Assembly (NCBI GenBank): GCA_964474425.1
Contig: CAYYTC010000022.1
Span: 1,486 to 65,485 of the forward strand
Reading direction: 5' to 3'
DNA length: 64,000 nucleotides
From: an uncultured Acidobacteriota bacterium
GTDB lineage: Bacteria > Acidobacteriota > UBA6911
The translations under genes and the position numbers were made by a program. The notes under the pieces were generated by a model. The model was given only the letters and a program-made list of their open reading frames with translations, was not told where the DNA came from and did not search any database. The stretch's first letter is position 1, and each line of letters opens with the position of its first letter. Below are positions 6,053-62,559 of this stretch, piece by piece.

Positions 6053-6151
6053 CCTCCGGGTCAAAAATCCCGAAGAATGGGTATAATGAGTCCTCCGGCT
6101 GGATGGACAAAGACGGCGCCCCGGCCTGAAAGTAATGCGAGAACCTCTGAT

Positions 6152-6406
6152 GTCAGGTACCTCCGGCAAAGCCGGAGGCAGGATTTAAACCGCTCAATGC
6201 GGTTGGAGGAGTTACGCCGGTCTTGAACGCTGACTTACGCAAGCAAAAGCCGATGAGGCGCTTCCGATGGAAGCGCCTCATCGGCTTTTGCTTGCCGATC
6301 CTCGCCGAACAAATCGTTTGTCAGCGCTTTTATCAGCGTTTCAAAATACGGAGCTGTCATACTCTTTGAGTCCCCCGGCAGAGCCGAGGGTTTACCAATG
6401 TAATTA
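6152..6406. repeat. Family-A structured intergenic repeat, copy 1 (~255 bp), containing a perfect 27-bp-stem palindrome
   Basis: Near-identical to 24623..25017, apart from a 129-bp insertion in that copy. Internal palindrome gcaagcaaaagccgatgaggcgcttccgat|ggaagcgcctcatcggcttttgcttgc. Ends in ...ggtttaccaatgTAATTA. Confidence 0.8.
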
Positions 6407-6704
6407 GTTTCTGTCGCGAAACTGCTTTGTGCCGCGTAGCGGCACTATGATTTTAGCCCGGCCTTTCAAGGCCGGGAACCATGATATAGAGAGCAGCGCG
6501 TCGCGTAGCGACGCTTGAGATTCAGCCGTCGCTACGCGACGGAAAACCTAACTCCTTTAGATCCAGGCCTTAAAAGGCCTGGCTAAATTCAGCTGGCCGC
6601 TACGCGGCCTGCATCCCATTTCCGGCTTATATGTAATATCAAATATCCTATTGCCTGTCGTAAAATTTGGTTTCCTCGCAAAACCCGCATTTCGCGACAG
6701 AAAC
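6407..6704. mobile_element. MITE-like non-autonomous element (~298 bp) with 15-bp terminal inverted repeats and a 6-bp TAATTA target-site duplication, inserted at the end of family-A copy 1
   Basis: Left terminal inverted repeat (TIR) gtttctgtcgcgaaa (6407-6421); right TIR tttcgcgacagaaac (6690-6704). Flanking direct repeats TAATTA at 6401-6406 and 6705-6710. The interior is packed with hairpins (gcccggcctttcaaggccgggaa; gcgtcgcgtagcgacgc; ccgtcgctacgcgacgg; ccaggccttaaaaggcctgg). The second family-A copy ends ...ccaatgTAATTAtttggg with a single uninterrupted TAATTA (25012-25017), i.e. an empty site. Confidence 0.7.
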
Positions 6705-6771
6705 TAATTAGGCGCGGCCTTGGGCCGTTTGGGCATCATTTATCTATTGGCCCGCGTCATAAGGAACCAGA

Positions 6772-8616
6772 ATGAAAGATCTATATGTCAAAGAACGCGA
6801 CCGCTCGCGCATCCCTGAAAAATACAAGTGGGATTTGAGTGAGCTCTATCCCGACGACGATGCCTGGACGGAAGCCAGGCGGCGGTTTGCTGCCGACCTT
6901 GTCCGCATATCGTCCTTCCGGGGCAAGCTGTCCGAATCACCGGGCCGGCTCCTGAACTGCCTCGAACTGGCAGACTTTTTCGGCAAGGAGTGCGCAAGGC
7001 TTGCCAGCTACGCGAGCATGAAATCGGACCTGGATACACGTGACTCAAAATACACGGCCATGGATCAGGAAATGAGCCGCATAGGGTCGGACCTTTCCGC
7101 GTTGACTTCATTCATCGAGCCGGAAATCCTGAGAATCGGCCCGGAAAGGATCAACCTCTTCATCGGACAGGAGCCGCGGCTTGCTGTTTATCGCCACGTT
7201 TTCGACGACATCCTCCGCAAAAAAGATCACACGGGCACGGAAGCCGAAGAGAAGATCATTGCCGAAGCCAACCTGATGGCCGATTCTCCGGCCAGCATCC
7301 ATACAATTTTTTCCAATGCCGATTTCCCCTTCCCGGAGGTAATCCTCGAAGACGGCTCTGCGGTGCGCCTGGATCCGCCGGCCTTCAGCCTGCACAGGAG
7401 GTCCCCTGTCCGCGAAAACAGGAAGAATGTTTTCTCCTCTTTTATGGGCAGCCTGAACGGTTTTCGCCGGACTTTCGGCGCTCAACTTGCCGCGGAAGTC
7501 CGGAAGAACATGTTTTTCACCCGCGCCCGGTCCTACAAATCCTGCCTGGAACGAGCCCTGGATGCCAACAATATCCCGGTCGCGGTCTACCACAGCCTCA
7601 TCTCAGGGGTACACGCGCACCTGGACACCCTCCACCGGTACCTGCTTCTGCGCAGGAGGCTGCTGGGGCTCAAAGAGTTGCATTACTACGACCTCTACGC
7701 GCCGGTCGTCAAGGAACTCGATTTAAGCTTTACGTACGACGAAGCCGTGGAACACGTGATCTCCTCCCTGGTTCCTCTGGGTAAGGAATACCAGAGCGTC
7801 GCGAGAACGGCGCTGTCCAGCCGCTGGATCGACGTGTATCCGAACGCCGGGAAAAAGTCCGGCGCTTACATGAATGGCGCCGTCTATGATATCCACCCGT
7901 ATATGCTTCTGAACTACAACGGCAAATATGACGACGTAAGCACCATCGCCCATGAACTCGGGCATACCATGCACAGCCACCTGACCAACGGGACGCAGCC
8001 CTACGCGCTATCCCATTACTCGATTTTCGTGGCGGAGGTGGCATCGACATTCAACGAAGCTCTTTTGCTGAACCATATGCTGGCAACCGAAGCCCGGGAC
8101 GAGGTGCGGCTGTCGCTGCTGTGCAATTACCTGGACAATGCCCGGGCAACGGTCTTCCGGCAGGTACAGTTCGCGGAGTTTGAACTCGGGATGCACCACG
8201 CAGCCGAAGAAGGTTCGGCCCTGACCGGTGATTTTCTAAACTCCCTTTATAGTGAAATCGCGCGGGAGTATTACGGGCACGAAAAAGGCATCTGCATCGT
8301 GGACGACGAAATACAGGCCGAATGGGCCTATATTCCCCATTTCTTTTACAATTTCTACGTGTATCAGTACGCAACATCCTACACGGCTTCCGCCGCACTC
8401 TACGGGATGGTTCAGGCCGGAGGCGATGATGCGGTCCGCTCCTATCTCAGCCTTCTTTCCGCGGGCGGATCCGACTATCCGATCGAGCTTCTCAAAAAGG
8501 TCGGAGTGGACATGACCACACCGCATCCCCTTGAAGCAACGATAGTTCGGATGAACCAGGTCATGGATGAAATAGAAAAAATCGCGTTCCGCCCCGGCAG
8601 TGCCATTTTTGCTTGA
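6772..8616 (+). CDS. pepF: Oligoendopeptidase F (M3B family)
   Basis: 614 aa. HELGH (HEXXH) zinc motif. Overall PepF-like architecture. Confidence 0.85.
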   Translation: MKDLYVKERDRSRIPEKYKWDLSELYPDDDAWTEARRRFAADLVRISSFRGKLSESPGRLLNCLELADFFGKECARLASYASMKSDLDTRDSKYTAMDQEMSRIGSDLSALTSFIEPEILRIGPERINLFIGQEPRLAVYRHVFDDILRKKDHTGTEAEEKIIAEANLMADSPASIHTIFSNADFPFPEVILEDGSAVRLDPPAFSLHRRSPVRENRKNVFSSFMGSLNGFRRTFGAQLAAEVRKNMFFTRARSYKSCLERALDANNIPVAVYHSLISGVHAHLDTLHRYLLLRRRLLGLKELHYYDLYAPVVKELDLSFTYDEAVEHVISSLVPLGKEYQSVARTALSSRWIDVYPNAGKKSGAYMNGAVYDIHPYMLLNYNGKYDDVSTIAHELGHTMHSHLTNGTQPYALSHYSIFVAEVASTFNEALLLNHMLATEARDEVRLSLLCNYLDNARATVFRQVQFAEFELGMHHAAEEGSALTGDFLNSLYSEIAREYYGHEKGICIVDDEIQAEWAYIPHFFYNFYVYQYATSYTASAALYGMVQAGGDDAVRSYLSLLSAGGSDYPIELLKKVGVDMTTPHPLEATIVRMNQVMDEIEKIAFRPGSAIFA

Positions 8617-9207: not shown

Positions 9208-12200
9208 ATGGCAGACTCACCAAGGAAGGCAATTAGCAGGCGCTGGTTACGGCTGGCGGTGATCCTGCCGGCTGCGCTCCTCGCGATCCTGGCATCTGCC
9301 TTTTTCCTCATCCAGACCCAAGCCGCAAAAAGCGCCCTCTTCCGTCAGCTGCAAAAATACCTGCGCGAACATTCCGGGATCGAGCTGCAGGCATCCGGTT
9401 TCCGTGCGGACCTGATCCGAGGGGAGGCGAGCCTGGAGAATGTGACCCTCCGGCATGTTTCCGCGCCGGGGCTGCCTCCTTTATTCAAAGCAGCCCGCTT
9501 CTATGTGCGGGCGGATATTTCCCGGCTGATCCGGGGCTTCCGCGAAATCGAGGAACTGAGGGTGACGGCTCCCGAAGTTAATTATTTTACAGATCCGTAC
9601 GGCAAAACCAACCTGCCTCCGTCCAAATCCGGACCGGGATCCGATTACAATCTCTTTATCTTCCACGGCGAAGCAAACGATGGAGTTCTGAGGATCCGGG
9701 ACCTCCGCAGCGGGATTGATCTGCACCTTTCAAATTGTCAGGTATCCGCAGACGGGGACAGCGCCACACACGGCCACCGCTTCGCTTTTGCCATCGGGCA
9801 GGAATCTTCTCTCGGATATCAACAACACAAATTTCCCCTGCGCGGACTGACAATTCGGGCAGACCTGAAAAATACAGGCCTTCAGGTCCATTCCCTCGAA
9901 CTTGAGACGGATGGGATCCGGCTGTCGGCAGCCGGTCTATTGAGCAATTTGTCCAAACCGGTTATGGATCTGCAGATCGAGCCGGATTTGGATTTGAACA
10001 GAATCGGGAGCACTCTTGAACTGCCATCCGGGATTGAAGGCCATATCTCAGGAAACGTTTCCGTCAAGGGAACCCTCGAGGAACTTCAGATCGCGGCTCG
10101 GCTGAAAGGTTCTTCCGTCGGCGCAGGGGAGTATGGCCCTGCAAGTTTCAGCGGCACCGCGCTCGCCGAATGGCTCGCCGACTCCAAACGGTTGCGCATC
10201 CGGAACCTGGACCTTGATTCGGCCGGCGGGTCGATCAAGGGGAACTCGGAGTTGTTTTTTGCGCCCCAAGCGGGCGTCAACTCCATCGAGGCGAGCTTTC
10301 AAAACCTCGATCTTTTCCCACTGTGGAAGCTGCTGAAACCGCCCTTTGATCTGGCCAGCCGGGGCGCCGGACAGGCCGCATTTCGATGGAAGGGACCGTT
10401 TTCCGCCTCGAAAATATCAGGGAATGTCCACCTCAATCTCTCGGCGGCGCGCGCGGCTCCGGATCTGAACATCCTGCCCATTTCGGGGAAGATCGATGCG
10501 CAAATCCAATCGGGCCGCATCGAGGCAGGCTTGAATTCCATCGAGGTGCTCGAGTCTCAGGTAAGCGGCCGGATTTCCCTACGTTCTTTCAGGGAAATCG
10601 AGGGCGGCATCCGAGGGTACGCACCGAACACGAACGGCATGATGGCGCAGCTTTCCCGTTTCCTCGGCGGAAGCGGCAGTTTTTTGAGAGACCGCAGGAT
10701 AGAGGGTCCCGTCGAGTTCACCGCCCAAGCCAGCGGGAAACTAAAGCAGCCGAAGTTCATCATCTCCGCTGACGCCCCGGACCTGCAGATTGGGGGACTG
10801 AAAAGCACACGGGCAACTGCCGGAGCGACCATAGAAGGCTCCCACATCTCTTTCGACAGCATCCTCACCCTGCCCGGGGACGCGCTCTCTTCCGTCAAAG
10901 GAACGCTGGACCTTTCCGGAACCAAGCCTCTGCTGGACATGGAAGCGCGCGCCGACAGAATTCAGGCGGCCTCGATACTGTCCGTCCTTGGGAGCGAGGT
11001 GCCTTTGGAGGGCTATTTCGACGCAGGGCTGCATCTGAACGGGAATTTGGACAGCCTGACCGGTGCGGCTCAGGTTGCAGGCAGCGCATTGTTCCTATAC
11101 GGGGAACCGCTCGGGCGACTGAATGCAAACCTGGAGGTTTCCGGTACAAAATTACAGTCCACTCAAATCACGTTGCATAAGGATCCGCAAATCCCCGGGG
11201 TCGGCGTCCTCGAAGCAAACTTCGCCTACGACCTGGAGTCCGGCCAATTCGAGTTTCAGGCCGACGGGAAGGACATGGCCATCACTCAGCTCAAGCTTCC
11301 CGGCGGATACCCGGTGGAAGGAATTTTTTCGGTTGCTGCCTCGGGGACCGGAACGCTTGCGCAACCCTCGATGGATATCAGGCTGACTACCGGCGAGGCT
11401 CAAGTCCGACACATGCCTCTCGGGCCCCTATTCATCGAGGGTTCCCTGAGGGAGGGACAGCTTACGGTCGGCGCCTCCGCTCCACGTTACAATATCGACT
11501 CCACCGCTCAAATCGCGGTCCGTGTTCCTTATCCTTACAGCGGCGAAATAAGGCTTGGAAATTCCGACCTGTCGCTGCTTGGTTTGAGGGGAGCGAACGG
11601 GCAGCTCCTGTCGGGAACCCTAGGAGCTCTGATCACCGGCTCAGGGGAGCTGACCGACGCTTCAAATGCGCGCGTTTCCGCCCGAATCGAGGAGCTGGGC
11701 TTGCAGGCCGGAGCGCTGAACATCCGAACCAGGGGCATCATTACTGCGGAATACCGGGACGGTTCGATTGAAATCAGCCCTGGCGCAACCCTCGCCAGCG
11801 GGAATTCAACCCTTCAGATAGCCGGAAGGGTGCCGCTCAGGCAGACGGCCCCGGACGGCACACTGACTCTCAAGGGCGAGCTTGATTTAGCTCAGGCTGC
11901 CGGATTTGCTCCAACAACGAAGGGATTCAAAGTCGCCGGCATCATGAAACTCGAGCTTTCCCTGTCGGGAAATCCTCGAAACCTGAGCGGTGAGGGCCGC
12001 ATAGCGCTGGCCGGCGGCACCATGAATTTGCCCGGGATTTCAACGCCGCTGACCGACATGCGGCTCAGAGCAGACCTTAAAGAGGGAGCCCTCATTCTGC
12101 AGCAGGCTGAAGCCGCCTGGGGTGACGGAAAAATCGCTTTGACAGGCGAATATCCACTGGGTCTGCTGCCTCAGAATGTCCCTGTTCAGTTCATGCGCAA

Positions 12201-16074: not shown

Positions 16075-16212
16075 CCGGCATTCCTCCCGCGATTTCGAAA
16101 CGAGGCGGCACGATAGGGCGTGGATCCGAATTGCATGGTTTTTGAAAAGAACCCTCAGGACCCAATGGGCTGCCGGTCCCAGAACATCCCAAAACGGCCG
16201 TCATCCCTTAGC

Positions 16213-16250
16213 CCCTCCGATCCTCCGATCCTTTGATCCTTTGATCCTTC
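16213..16250. repeat. Octamer tandem repeat (CTCCGATC/CTTTGATC) x4, the reverse complement of the GGATCARA array at 62423
   Basis: cctccgatcctccgatcctttgatcctttgatcctt, lying between the convergent stops of the TamB-Omp85 gene and gcvP. Confidence 0.7.
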
Positions 16251-24622: not shown

Positions 24623-25017
24623 GTCAGGTACCTCCGGCAAAGCCGGAGGCCTGAAAGATTTGTATCGCTCAAAGCGGTTGGAGGAGTTATGCCGGTCTTG
24701 AACGCTGACTTACGCGGGCAAAAGCCGATGAGGCGCTTCCGATCCCCGCAGGGGCCAGCGCTCCGCGCTGGACAGTTTTCTGCGGCGGCACTGTGGCAAG
24801 CGCCGTGCGGCAAGGAGATGAAGGGCATGAGAAACCGGGCGTTTGCCACAGTGCCGCCGCAGAAAACTCCATCGGAAGCGCCTCATCGGCTTTTGCTCGC
24901 CGACCCTCGCCGAACAAATCGGTGACGTTTGTCAGCGCTTTTATCAGCGTTTCAAAATACGGAGCTGTCAACCTCTTTGAGTCTCCCGGCAGAGCCGGGG
25001 GTTTACCAATGTAATTA
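24623..25017. repeat. Family-A structured repeat, copy 2, carrying a nested 129-bp insertion (24744..24872) that is itself a 24-bp-stem hairpin
   Basis: Aligns with 6152..6406. The central palindrome is split by an insert containing ccagcgctccgcgctgg and a perfect long hairpin ttttctgcggcggcactgtggcaa...(43-nt loop)...ttgccacagtgccgccgcagaaaa (24776..24866). Ends in an intact TAATTA empty site. Confidence 0.8.
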
Positions 25018-31599: not shown

Positions 31600-31745
31600 T
31601 CGGAGGCGCTTCATAAACTCTTGCACGCTGACTCTCACATTAAGGGTCAGCGTTCACCATCGCCTTTATCGGCTTTTGTCAGCATTATCTGATCCTGGAG
31701 CTGTCAAACTCTGTCATTCCCCCGGCAAAGCTCTGACTACGGGAC
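31600..31745. repeat. Diverged partial copy of the family-A repeat
   Basis: cggcttttgtcagc...ggagctgtcaaactctgtcattcccccggcaaagc matches the 3-prime half of the family-A element. Confidence 0.5.
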
Positions 31746-32070
31746 ATATTTGACACTATGGTCCGCTTTGTTGAGGTTACGGAAGGGACGCTGCGAAAGA
31801 AGCCCGGAAATTACTGCTTCCGTGCCGGATTCAACGCCGAAGGCGTTGCTTTCCAGAGCTCAGGGTTGGCGGAACGTACGCCAATCCTGGGCTTTGAGAC
31901 GCTGCCCCGTTGGGGCAGAATGCATAGGATATTCAGGCTGACTTGCCGGGCGATGAACTCAGTCTTGCTTGTGGGCAACAGTCAGAGCAAAGCTGGGGGA
32001 CAATCAATGGAATTCATAGTATTATCGGGCTGCCGCAATCTAAAACAGTTTTCGAAGGAGGAGTTCAAAT

Positions 32071-54950: not shown

Positions 54951-55469
54951 CCATTGCCGGCAATCCTTCGGCCCGAGGCTTATTTCTGCAAATACAGAGG
55001 TGAGTATCCTCCGGCAATGCCCTGACTGTTGCCCACACGTGACACTGTGGCCGTGTCCCAACCTTCCTTCTTCCTTCCCTCATGCATTCAGCCCCAACGG
55101 GGCTGAGTCCCAAAGCCCAGGGTTGACCGCAAAAAGCGCGGTCAACCCTGGGCCCTGGGACGTAACGCCTTCGGCGTAGAATGTGGCAAGCAAACCGCAG
55201 CCGGCAGGCTGCCTGAACCTAATTTCATCCGGAAATAAAAGCAGCCTGCCCACAGTGTCAAGTGTGTCCCGCAGTCAGGGCAAATCCGGAGGCTTTACGG
55301 TGGCCGGCCGCTCAATGGGGCCGTATTGCAGCCGATAAAGGATTAATCCGGCTTTCTGCTCCGAAAATAGCGAAGCTGATGAATCCGTTACACCCTTCAT
55401 TCACCAAATTGAGCGTCGGCGAAGCCGATTTTCATGCGCTTGGGTGCGCCTCGGGCGCATGGAGGACTG

Positions 55470-55710
55470 TCGCGAAACTCAGAATTTAGGCCCGGAGGGT
55501 GGCAGGCACTCGACCCGGCCGTCAGGCCGGGCTTATGGGTGAATAGGAAATGAACGCCAAAGGCGCGGCACAAATTGTTCGGGTCATTGGTTTTAGTGTC
55601 GCCCCTTCGGGGCTTTCTATTTTCCTAATCCTACCCCCGGGCTCGCGCCCAGGGCCATTTTCTGTCGGCCCTCCGGGCCTGGATGTCGCATTTCGCGACA
55701 GAACCTAATT
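55470..55710. mobile_element. Degenerate second copy of the MITE-like element (same TIR family as 6407..6704)
   Basis: Left end ctgtcgcgaaact (55477-) and right end atttcgcgacagaacctaattg (55693-). Palindrome-rich interior (cccggccgtcaggccggg; gcccc ttcg ggggc). Confidence 0.5.
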
Positions 55711-60114: not shown

Positions 60115-62424
60115 ATGAACATCGCAATCCGGGGAGCCGTCCAGGGGGTCGGATTCAGGCCTTTTGTGTACAGGCTGGCCACGGAAATGAATCTTCCGGG
60201 CTGGGTGCTCAATTCGCCGCAGGGGGTTTTCATCGAAGTCGAGGGCAACGCGGACGCTCTGAAATCATTCCTGCTAAGGCTGCAGCGAGAGAAGCCTTCG
60301 CCTTCCTTTATTCAGAGCCTGGAGTTTTCGTTCCTCGATCCGGTCCCTTTCGTCAGGTTCGAGATACGGACCAGCGATCAGAAAGGGACAGCCGTTGCGC
60401 TGATCCTGCCCGACATAGCCACCTGCGCGGAATGCATGTCGGAAGTGTTCGATCCTACCAACCGGCGATACCGCTATCCGTTCACGAACTGCACTCATTG
60501 TGGCCCCCGTTTTTCGATCATAGAATCGCTTCCCTACGACCGTCCGAATACTTCGATGAAGTCCTTCGAAATGTGCGCGGAATGCCGGAGGGAATACGAA
60601 AACCCCGAAGACCGCCGCTTCCATGCACAGCCGAATGCATGCCCGGCCTGCGGACCTGTTTTGCAGCTGTGGGATCCCTCAGGCAAAGCCCTTTCCAGCC
60701 GCCACGACGCCCTGGTGCAGGCGGCCGAAGGCATTCGAGAGGGAAAAATTATCGCCCTGAAAGGGCTTGGAGGATTTCAGCTGCTGGCCGACGCGCGCAA
60801 TGCAGAAACCGTGGAAGCACTGCGTCTCAGGAAACGCCGCGAGGAAAAGCCCTTTGCACTGATGTACCCGTCCCTTGAAGCCGTACGCGCCGACTGCGCG
60901 GTCTCGGAGCTGGAAGCCAGACTGTTGGCTGCGCCCGAATCTCCGATAGTTCTCCTCAGCCGAAGACAGGACAGTTTGCAGCCGACTATCTCCACTGCGG
61001 TAGCTCCCGGCAATCCCTGCCTGGGTGTCATGCTCCCCTATACGCCGCTGCACCACCTGCTAATGAGAGAGCTCGGCTTCCCTGTGATCGCAACAAGCGG
61101 CAACCTCTCCGACGAGCCGATCTGCATTGATGAGCATGAAGCGCTCGTCAGGCTAAAGGACATGGCCGATCTTTTCCTTGTCCATAACCGGCCCATTGTC
61201 CGGCACGTGGACGATTCCATAGTCAGAATTATCCGGGGCCGGGAACTCGTCTTGAGGCGCGCGCGCGGATATGCCCCGCTGCCGATTTATTGCGAACAGG
61301 CGGCGCCCGGAATCCTGGCGGTCGGCGCGCATTTGAAGAACACCGTGGCTTTGACCGTGGGGAAGAACATATTTGTCAGCCAGCATATCGGAGATCTGGA
61401 AAACCGGGAGGCCGGAAGCGCGTTTCGCCGGGTCATCAGCGACTTCCGCCGCCTGTATCCGATCAAGCCTGCTCATATCGCCGCCGATCTGCATCCGGAC
61501 TATCTTTCGACCAGATTCGCCAGGGAAAGCGGGGTGCCGCTGGTTTCGATACAGCACCACTACGCCCACGTTGCCGCCTGCATGGCCGAAAACAGGATCC
61601 ATGGCCAAGTGCTGGGCGTGTCCTGGGACGGGACCGGCTATGGACCGGATGGAACTGTCTGGGGAGGTGAGTTCCTCCTGACGGATGAAACAGCCTTTCA
61701 TCGTGCGGCCACCTTTCGCAAATTCAGGCTGCCGGGCAGCGCATCGGCGATCCGGGAGCCCAGGCGGACAGCTCTCGGGCTGCTCTTTGAAATGATGGGA
61801 TCAAGCATCTTCCAAAAAAGGGATTCCGATCCGGTCCGCGCATTCCGCGACTCCGAAATTCCCGTACTTTTACGGATGCTGCAAAATGGGATTCATTCCC
61901 CCTGGACCACGAGCGCCGGCCGTCTGTTCGATGCAATTGCCTCCATTGCCGGGCTGCGGCAGCGGATCCGATTCGAAGGACAGGCAGCCATGGATCTGGA
62001 GTTCGCCATCGGCTCCGAAAAGACCGGGGAGTCGTATCCGTTTGCCATCTCGATACAGGCAGATCCGGAGCCGGGGAGCTTTCAGGCCGGGATGATCGTA
62101 GACTGGGAACCCATGGTTCACGCGATTCTCCGCGAAGTCCGGGATGAAATACCCCTGGCGCGGATATCCAGAAAATTCCACAATACTCTTGTGGAGATCA
62201 TCGTAGAGGTTGCCCGGCGCATCGCCGAAAATCGAGTGGTCCTTACGGGAGGATGTTTTCAGAACAGGTTTTTAATCGAGCATTCGGTCGAGAGGCTGGA
62301 AGCGGAGGGATTCAAGCCCTATTGGCACCAGAGGATTCCGCCGAACGACGGCGGGATTGCGCTGGGCCAGGCTGCCGCCGCCGCCCGTTTTCTGGGAAAA
62401 GAAGCGGAGGATCGAGGGACTTAA
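60115..62424 (+). CDS. hypF: Carbamoyltransferase HypF
   Basis: Acylphosphatase domain (IRGAVQGVGFRPFVY). Two Zn-finger CxxC pairs. YrdC-like and Kae1-like domains. Confidence 0.9.
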   Translation: MNIAIRGAVQGVGFRPFVYRLATEMNLPGWVLNSPQGVFIEVEGNADALKSFLLRLQREKPSPSFIQSLEFSFLDPVPFVRFEIRTSDQKGTAVALILPDIATCAECMSEVFDPTNRRYRYPFTNCTHCGPRFSIIESLPYDRPNTSMKSFEMCAECRREYENPEDRRFHAQPNACPACGPVLQLWDPSGKALSSRHDALVQAAEGIREGKIIALKGLGGFQLLADARNAETVEALRLRKRREEKPFALMYPSLEAVRADCAVSELEARLLAAPESPIVLLSRRQDSLQPTISTAVAPGNPCLGVMLPYTPLHHLLMRELGFPVIATSGNLSDEPICIDEHEALVRLKDMADLFLVHNRPIVRHVDDSIVRIIRGRELVLRRARGYAPLPIYCEQAAPGILAVGAHLKNTVALTVGKNIFVSQHIGDLENREAGSAFRRVISDFRRLYPIKPAHIAADLHPDYLSTRFARESGVPLVSIQHHYAHVAACMAENRIHGQVLGVSWDGTGYGPDGTVWGGEFLLTDETAFHRAATFRKFRLPGSASAIREPRRTALGLLFEMMGSSIFQKRDSDPVRAFRDSEIPVLLRMLQNGIHSPWTTSAGRLFDAIASIAGLRQRIRFEGQAAMDLEFAIGSEKTGESYPFAISIQADPEPGSFQAGMIVDWEPMVHAILREVRDEIPLARISRKFHNTLVEIIVEVARRIAENRVVLTGGCFQNRFLIEHSVERLEAEGFKPYWHQRIPPNDGGIALGQAAAAARFLGKEAEDRGT

Positions 62425-62519
62425 GGATCAAAGGATCAAAGGATCAGAGGATCAGAGGAGTGGAGGAGCAAGGGATAAACGAGTTGATTTCCCTTTGATC
62501 CTTTGCCCCTTTGATCCTT
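62423..62519. repeat. Octamer tandem repeat (GGATCARA)x4-5 plus an inverted partner (TTTGATCC units), forming a ~24-bp imperfect-stem hairpin between hypF and hypC
   Basis: aggatcaaaggatcaaaggatcagaggatcagagg begins at the hypF stop. ~30 nt later comes tttgatcctttgcccctttgatcc (reverse-complement units). The same octamer array occurs at 16213..16250. Confidence 0.7.
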
Positions 62520-62559
62520 CTCTGCGGTTTTTGTCAAAAGTAAAAGGGGGGATTAATAC

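Follow-up and report, generated by a model that had tools for sequence, protein, structure and literature searches.

A MITE-like element with ISNCY-family terminal repeats in a nested series of insertions upstream of pepF

The Correia elements of Neisseria and the RUP elements of Streptococcus pneumoniae are bacterial MITEs derived from insertion sequences (IS). The element that we describe here, which lies in the window (the whole 64-kb stretch of DNA that was analysed, which comes from an uncultured acidobacterium), resembles them in being about 300 bp long, non-coding and intergenic, in carrying terminal inverted repeats that are also those of an autonomous IS, in having a target duplication and a highly structured interior, and in being present in some relatives and absent from others. 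It differs from them in that its partner belongs to the ISNCY family and is not IS630/Tc1-like, in that the duplicated target is a palindromic TAR(N)YTA of 6-7 bp and not TA, and in that it has just 15-19 nt in common with the IS, with exchangeable hairpin modules inside.

Among autonomous elements, the ISDol1 group duplicates 6-7 bp according to ISfinder, in agreement with the lengths that we see in this family. Full-length elements with the same repeats as the window element can be assigned to the ISNCY family by their transposase, which scores 421 bits on the NCBIfam equivalog model NF033593 ('ISNCY family transposase', cut-off 325). They differ from the named ISNCY elements, the closest plasmid-borne ones being ISRm17, ISRle10 and ISRsp17, in that the transposases have only ~31% amino-acid identity and in that a DUF6788-like ORF lies upstream. 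The window element in turn differs from any ISNCY IS in lacking a transposase altogether.

Two further systems are relevant to the locus. A second repeat, which we call family A, is like IS200/IS605 elements and PATEs in its end hairpins, its lack of terminal inverted repeats and target duplication, and its fixed adjacent target, TAAT on its own strand. In contrast to IS200/IS605 elements, it carries neither tnpA nor tnpB, and its middle is a 27-bp perfect hairpin. The interior of the MITE recalls the Acido-Lenti-1 RNA family (RF01687), whose definition comes solely from comparative genomics (Weinberg et al., 2010, PMC2864571). The likeness consists of two hairpins, a GGCUA...UAU linker and occurrence in the same phylum, and one of the two copies in the window scores above the curated threshold; the difference is that the window-type motif occurs in inverted pairs 3-24 nt inside transposon repeats, whereas the seed sequences of the RNA family are not so flanked.

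Anatomy of the element and related repeats in the window

A preliminary description of this DNA had proposed a ~298-bp element with perfect 15-bp terminal inverted repeats, flanked by TAATTA direct repeats, sitting exactly at the end of the first family A copy and having an interior that is free of ORFs and consists of a chain of hairpins. All of this holds on closer analysis. The element is 298 bp long (6407-6704), and its inverted repeat is perfect over 15 bp, or over 21 bp if the palindromic TAATTA flanks are included (Table 1). It was inserted at the junction between the left end of family A copy 1 and the target of that copy, and the left TAATTA is made up of the terminal TA of family A and family A's own ATTA target. 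The longest ORF inside the element is 33 aa. Folded as single-stranded DNA, it reaches -80.9 kcal/mol (z = -10.8 relative to shuffles), and the near-palindromic interior contains a 47-nt internal inverted repeat in which 6431-6477 pairs with 6562-6608. The two central hairpins are complementary to each other and form the centre of this internal palindrome. Within the AT-richer stretch on the right, the 4 nt nearest the repeat (TGCG on the opposite strand) agree with the IS right end as well.

Table 1. Positions of the MITE, its parts and associated repeats in the window.
Feature	Position	Strand	Basis or remark
Family A copy 1, non-autonomous	6152..6402	-	Absent in L124, L245 and L247, no target duplication; end hairpins match a tnpA element
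Target duplication, left copy, TAATTA	6401..6406	.	Sequence; one TAATTG at the orthologous empty sites L123 and L246
Left terminal inverted repeat GTTTCTGTCGCGAAA	6407..6421	+	Sequence; same as ends of full-length ISNCY-family IS
Two-hairpin module adjoining the left repeat	6430..6476	-	Resembles Rfam Acido-Lenti-1, 30.5 bits (gathering score 37)
Central hairpin pair, GCGTCGC-GTA-GCGACGC and CCGTCGC-TAC-GCGACGG	6498..6542	.	Sequence and folds
Second two-hairpin module, inverted partner of 6431-6477, 83% complementary	6562..6608	+	
AT-richer, little-structured stretch, exclusive to the 6407-6704 copy	6609..6689	.	
Right terminal inverted repeat TTTCGCGACAGAAAC	6690..6704	-	Exact reverse complement of GTTTCTGTCGCGAAA
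Target duplication, right copy, TAATTA	6705..6710	.	Sequence; alignments with relatives
Family A copy 2, followed by ATTA	24623..25013	-	Paralogous 'empty site', hexamer 25012-25017
Second MITE, same superfamily, different subfamily	55467..55705	.	
Left repeat core of second MITE, CTGTCGCGAAA	55467-55477		
Right repeat of second MITE, TTTCGCGACAGAACC	55691-55705		

When up to two mismatches are allowed, the terminal 15-mer occurs at three sites in the window, compared with 0.27 expected from shuffles; two of them are the ends of the 6407-6704 element, and the third is the right terminus of the ~55.7-kb copy. No transposase homologue was found within the 64-kb window, and the 298-bp MITE had no match among PLSDB plasmids.

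The superfamily has only two copies within the 64 kb, and they belong to different subfamilies. The second had been described as a degenerate copy at 55470..55710. It is real, but it is a member of a different subfamily, spans 55467-55705 and has lost the outer 4 nt of its left repeat; no target duplication can be recognised around it. The two copies have only CTGTCGCGAAACT at their left ends and CGCATTTCGCGACAGAA-CTAATT at their right ends in common, and their interiors cannot be aligned. About 190 bp upstream of this copy lies one member of a third MITE-like family, 'B', of ~270 bp, which is found at 55001-55270 (+) and 31745-32006 (-) and has imperfect ~28-bp inverted repeats (CTGACTGTTGCCCACACGTGACACTGTG / CACAGTGTCAAGTGTGTCCCGCAGTCAG) and internal hairpins. 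The window also contains tandem 8-bp repeats, CCTCCGAT / CCTTTGAT, at 16206-16250 and 62403-62523, where they are mutually inverted.

Terminal repeats, targets and an ISNCY-family partner

We scanned 185,579 species genomes with TTTCGCGACAGAAMC; many matches to a 15-mer arise by chance, and only loci with repeats paired in inverted orientation were taken. Among the matches listed, these paired-end loci fall into two size classes. The first, of 120-514 bp, comes nearly entirely from Acidobacteriota or Terriglobia MAGs; with the short elements on soil-metagenome contigs included, the range is 116-514 bp. The second, of about 2.06-2.17 kb, comes from Alphaproteobacteria, Woeseiaceae and others. 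Metagenomes scanned for the 19-nt right end yielded, among the matches listed, mainly full-length elements of 2.09-2.11 kb. The full-length IS with the same terminal repeats that the preliminary description had anticipated does exist, at about 2.06-2.19 kb: at least 33 full-length elements (2056-2190 bp) have identical 15-bp ends. The window element agrees with the consensus ends of the IS over its leftmost 15 nt and its rightmost 19 nt, and nowhere else.

The full-length elements, one of which is a copy in Bradyrhizobium sp. SRL28 (L107), encode their ISNCY-family transposase of ~474-478 aa in one long ORF. In Pfam, the protein matches DUF772 above threshold and DDE_Tnp_1 and DDE_Tnp_1_6 just below theirs. 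Partial or disrupted homologues of the transposase occur in other Acidobacteriota (L082, L104, L113). Directly upstream of the transposase gene is the conserved DUF6788-like ORF of ~120-140 aa (1392-1811 in L116, 1645-2004 in L047, and others), which may encode an accessory protein of this IS group. In four metagenome loci (L125, L133, L140, L192) a full-length copy is separated from another, in tail-to-tail or head-to-tail order, by a spacer of only 6-7 bp; such junctions could be genuine tandem or repeat-to-repeat arrangements, or else the assembly may have collapsed a multi-copy element whose target hardly varies. Our search of the literature on ISDol1 or ISNCY MITEs in Acidobacteria found no relevant description.

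Copies elsewhere were expected to have consistent terminal repeats and target duplications, and they do. Exact 6-bp direct repeats flank 6 of the 15 short elements among the matches listed (TAATTA twice, TATCTA, TAGTTA, TAGCTA and others), and in most of the remaining ones the two repeats differ by one base. The direct repeats TATCTA (L086) and TAGTTA (L096) are non-palindromic, so they cannot simply prolong the inverted repeat; a 7-bp example is TAGTCTA. Target duplications are 6-7 bp long in MITEs and IS alike. In the metagenome scan, 109 of 125 right flanks among the matches listed fit TAR(N)YTA, 39 of them in its 6-bp form and 70 in its 7-bp form. Compared with TAG(N)CTA, the target typical of full-length elements, TAATTA is in the minority, but it is seen again in five acidobacterial MITEs (L002, L035, L006, L042, L080). 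The left and right flanks of full-length metagenome copies often disagree, which we provisionally attribute to assembly across a multi-copy repeat; since short reads cannot pair flanks across a 2.1-kb repeat, we set this disagreement aside as evidence against duplication. One MITE of 513 bp (L027, 2282-2794) encloses another short element, whose inverted repeats are of a variant form (CTGTTGCAAAACT...AGTTTTGCAACAG), and looks like a MITE nested within a MITE.

We consider it highly probable (roughly 90%) that 6407-6704 is a MITE with the 15-bp repeats of this ISNCY-family group, moved in trans by a transposase encoded elsewhere. The reading is built on features that are directly observed, namely the inverted repeats, which are also found on transposase-encoding elements, the duplicated target, the orthologous empty site described below and the lack of coding capacity. 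The mechanism by which the element would have moved is one that we infer from its anatomy. The DDE transposase of the ~2.1-kb IS would recognise the 15-bp ends of the MITE and act on them in trans, making a staggered cut where a short TA-rich palindrome fits TAR(N)YTA, in this case TAATTA. Repair of the gaps would then duplicate 6 bp and, at certain sites, 7 bp. At the locus studied here, the MITE entered a TAATTA that had been created by the end of the older family A element together with family A's target.

Acido-Lenti-1 modules in the interior

A different view of the element would be that it is a structured small-RNA gene of the Acido-Lenti-1 family, or a REP/BIME-like array, in which the terminal inverted repeats are merely an outer stem. 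The RF01687 model matches both window copies, with 41.6 bits at 55635-55680 (+), above the gathering score of 37, and with 30.5 bits at 6430-6476 (-), under it. The extreme fold of the element would also suit a structured RNA, and the motif is known outside such elements, as the family's seed sequences are dispersed single copies in Koribacter and tandem arrays in Lentisphaera. However, the 15-bp ends are identical to those of transposase-encoding IS that have no Acido-Lenti-1 motif, and the target that flanks the element in duplicate is present only once at the orthologous loci. In the family members, moreover, conserved ends enclose interiors of unrelated sequence, which is the pattern of a MITE and not that of an RNA gene. 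Neither does the element belong to the REP/BIME class, whose members are RAYT-linked and lack terminal inverted repeats and target duplications; it has both, as in DDE IS. As a primary explanation, the small-RNA or REP reading is largely refuted, and we regard it as very unlikely.

Across the window and nine loci that were scanned, 9 of the 10 RF01687 matches with E < 0.1 lie inside short elements bounded by the repeats; for the remaining match, in L027, no repeats are nearby. Matches fall within the MITEs of L006 and L002 (two each) and L068, and within the degenerate MITE of L044. In these MITEs the motif is placed 3-24 nt inside the repeats, in inverted pairs and with the short hairpin outermost. 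Derivation of the module from sub-terminal regions of the IS was considered and rejected, as the motif was found in none of the seven full-length IS loci. The hairpins of the MITE are absent from the full-length IS and are therefore MITE-specific cargo, not binding sites for the transposase. The Acido-Lenti-1 module is thus cargo of one MITE subfamily and occurs in other contexts as well.

It is conceivable that Acido-Lenti-1, at least in Acidobacteriota, is altogether a portable two-hairpin DNA module carried inside the ends of ISNCY-moved MITEs and not a trans-acting RNA gene. We put this forward tentatively and think it rather doubtful. Against generalising from the mobile modules is the finding that the seed sequences of Weinberg et al. 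are not flanked by the MITE repeat (its 8- and 10-mers are absent and its 7-mers occur at about chance level), as is the arrangement of the Lentisphaera seeds in tandem arrays. If the proposal were true, the covariation that defines the family would reflect selection on hairpins of mobile DNA or of read-through transcripts.

Orthologous loci and nested insertions upstream of pepF

The corresponding loci of related genomes were reached via PepF (6772-8616 in the window) and its 90%-identity cluster, in which members, identical sequence aside, are 91-92% identical to the window protein. Where the window reads ...GGTTTACCAATG TAATTA (298 bp) TAATTA GGCGCGGCCTTGGG, two relatives, L123 (on a 1.36-Mb contig) and L246, read ...GGTTTACCAATG TAATTG GGCGCGGCCTTGGG. 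In short form, CCAATG TAATTA (298 bp) TAATTA GGCGCGG in the window stands against CCAATG TAATTG GGCGCGG in both relatives, which lack the element and contain family A. The window has the element and two hexamers where the relatives have a single hexamer, so that the filled and empty sites differ by 304 bp (298 bp of element and 6 bp of duplicated target). BLAST segments between the window and L123 overlap by 5 nt precisely at this hexamer. An empty allele of the window locus would read ...CCAATGTAATTAGGCGCGG....

Three other relatives (L124, L245, L247) have neither family A nor the MITE, and read CTCTGAT followed directly by ATTAGGCGCGG; the empty sites of family A are given by CTCTGAT followed by ATTAGGCG. 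Three states have thus been kept at this locus: no insertion, family A alone, and both family A and the MITE. Presence and absence among the relatives show a nested series of insertions. No orthologues of the copy-3 and family A copy-2 loci, sought via neighbouring proteins, are on record. Two independent short-read contigs, L120 and L121, confirm the right junction at 100% identity. In both, the first 31-mer stops precisely at the base that follows TAATTA, a break point that would be expected if the assembly branched at another copy sharing this end and this duplication.

These alignments bear on two further claims of the preliminary description, which had proposed comparison with related genomes as a check. 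It had inferred a recent transposition from a filled and an empty site in the same 64 kb, the empty one being at family A copy 2, which ends, as it had noted, in ...CCAATGTAATTATTTGGG with a single TAATTA. The insertion itself is confirmed by L123 and L246, but the in-window site is paralogous and belongs to a different locus. The comparison within the window gave the right answer because the last two bases of family A and its ATTA target recreate TAATTA at each copy. As to recency, the insertion is younger than a species-level split and may still be old; it cannot be dated more finely because even the closest relatives, at 84-87% DNA identity, are a different species.

The same presence/absence pattern would arise if the element were ancestral at the locus and had been precisely deleted in the relatives. 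This pattern is known only among species-level relatives, and long palindromes are prone to deletion, as a 15-nt deletion at the family A hairpin tip of L123 illustrates. However, all five relatives are without the element, and two of them keep family A intact together with exactly one target hexamer. Ancestral presence would require at least two independent excisions, each removing one copy of the duplication, which is rare for DDE elements, and in any case would not alter the identification of the element as a MITE. We therefore judge precise loss to be improbable. Least probable of all is that the TAATTA flanks belong to the element as parts of a 21-bp inverted repeat with no target duplication: TAATTA is self-complementary, so that direct and inverted repeats of it are inseparable by sequence alone, and the right end of the 55467-55705 copy retains CTAATT, but this reading is refuted by the empty orthologous site with one hexamer and by the non-palindromic TATCTA and TAGTTA and the 7-bp TAGTCTA elsewhere.

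The older insertion at the locus is of a different kind. Family A has no terminal inverted repeats and makes no target duplication; similar hairpins are found near both of its ends in the same orientation, and both window copies abut ATTA. In L123, family A occupies 9683-9934. A plasmid search placed its end hairpin beside an annotated IS200/IS605 tnpA on the Iodobacter fluviatilis plasmid pl1. Judging from its sequence, family A is an IS200/IS605-derived non-autonomous element, because both of its ends align with the left and right ends of the Iodobacter tnpA element. A similar mini-element is present in a Rhodanobacter plasmid. In family A copy 2 an extra 127-nt hairpin (24744-24870, with 31-bp arms at 24774-24804 and 24838-24868) is inserted in the tip of the central 27-bp hairpin, and the deletion in L123 lies at the same tip. 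The palindrome tip of family A appears to be a hot spot for insertion and deletion.

The MITE was inserted 61 bp upstream of the start codon of pepF, a peptidase gene. A TATAAT box at 6082-6087, just downstream of where the VWA gene stops, does not vary among the sequences that span it (the window, L123, L124, L245 and L247). Both family A and the MITE lie between this box and the pepF ATG, and the intergenic region has grown from 163 bp to 719 bp. A promoter and terminator scan around the insertion gave results no better than shuffled expectation. The insertions may lengthen the pepF leader and add structure to it, and by their position they may possibly have an effect on pepF expression.

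Our understanding of MITEs is unchanged by this element, which is an ordinary and well-documented example of known mobile DNA; only the link to Acido-Lenti-1 and the nested insertion series go beyond routine. The locus offers a clean example of nested non-autonomous elements in which all three evolutionary states have been kept. It also ties a widespread acidobacterial and soil MITE family to an autonomous partner of the ISNCY family and to a target that is strictly palindromic. Finally, an Rfam small-RNA motif is part of mobile DNA in these genomes, which helps the annotation of MAGs and guards against over-reading of 'sRNA' matches.
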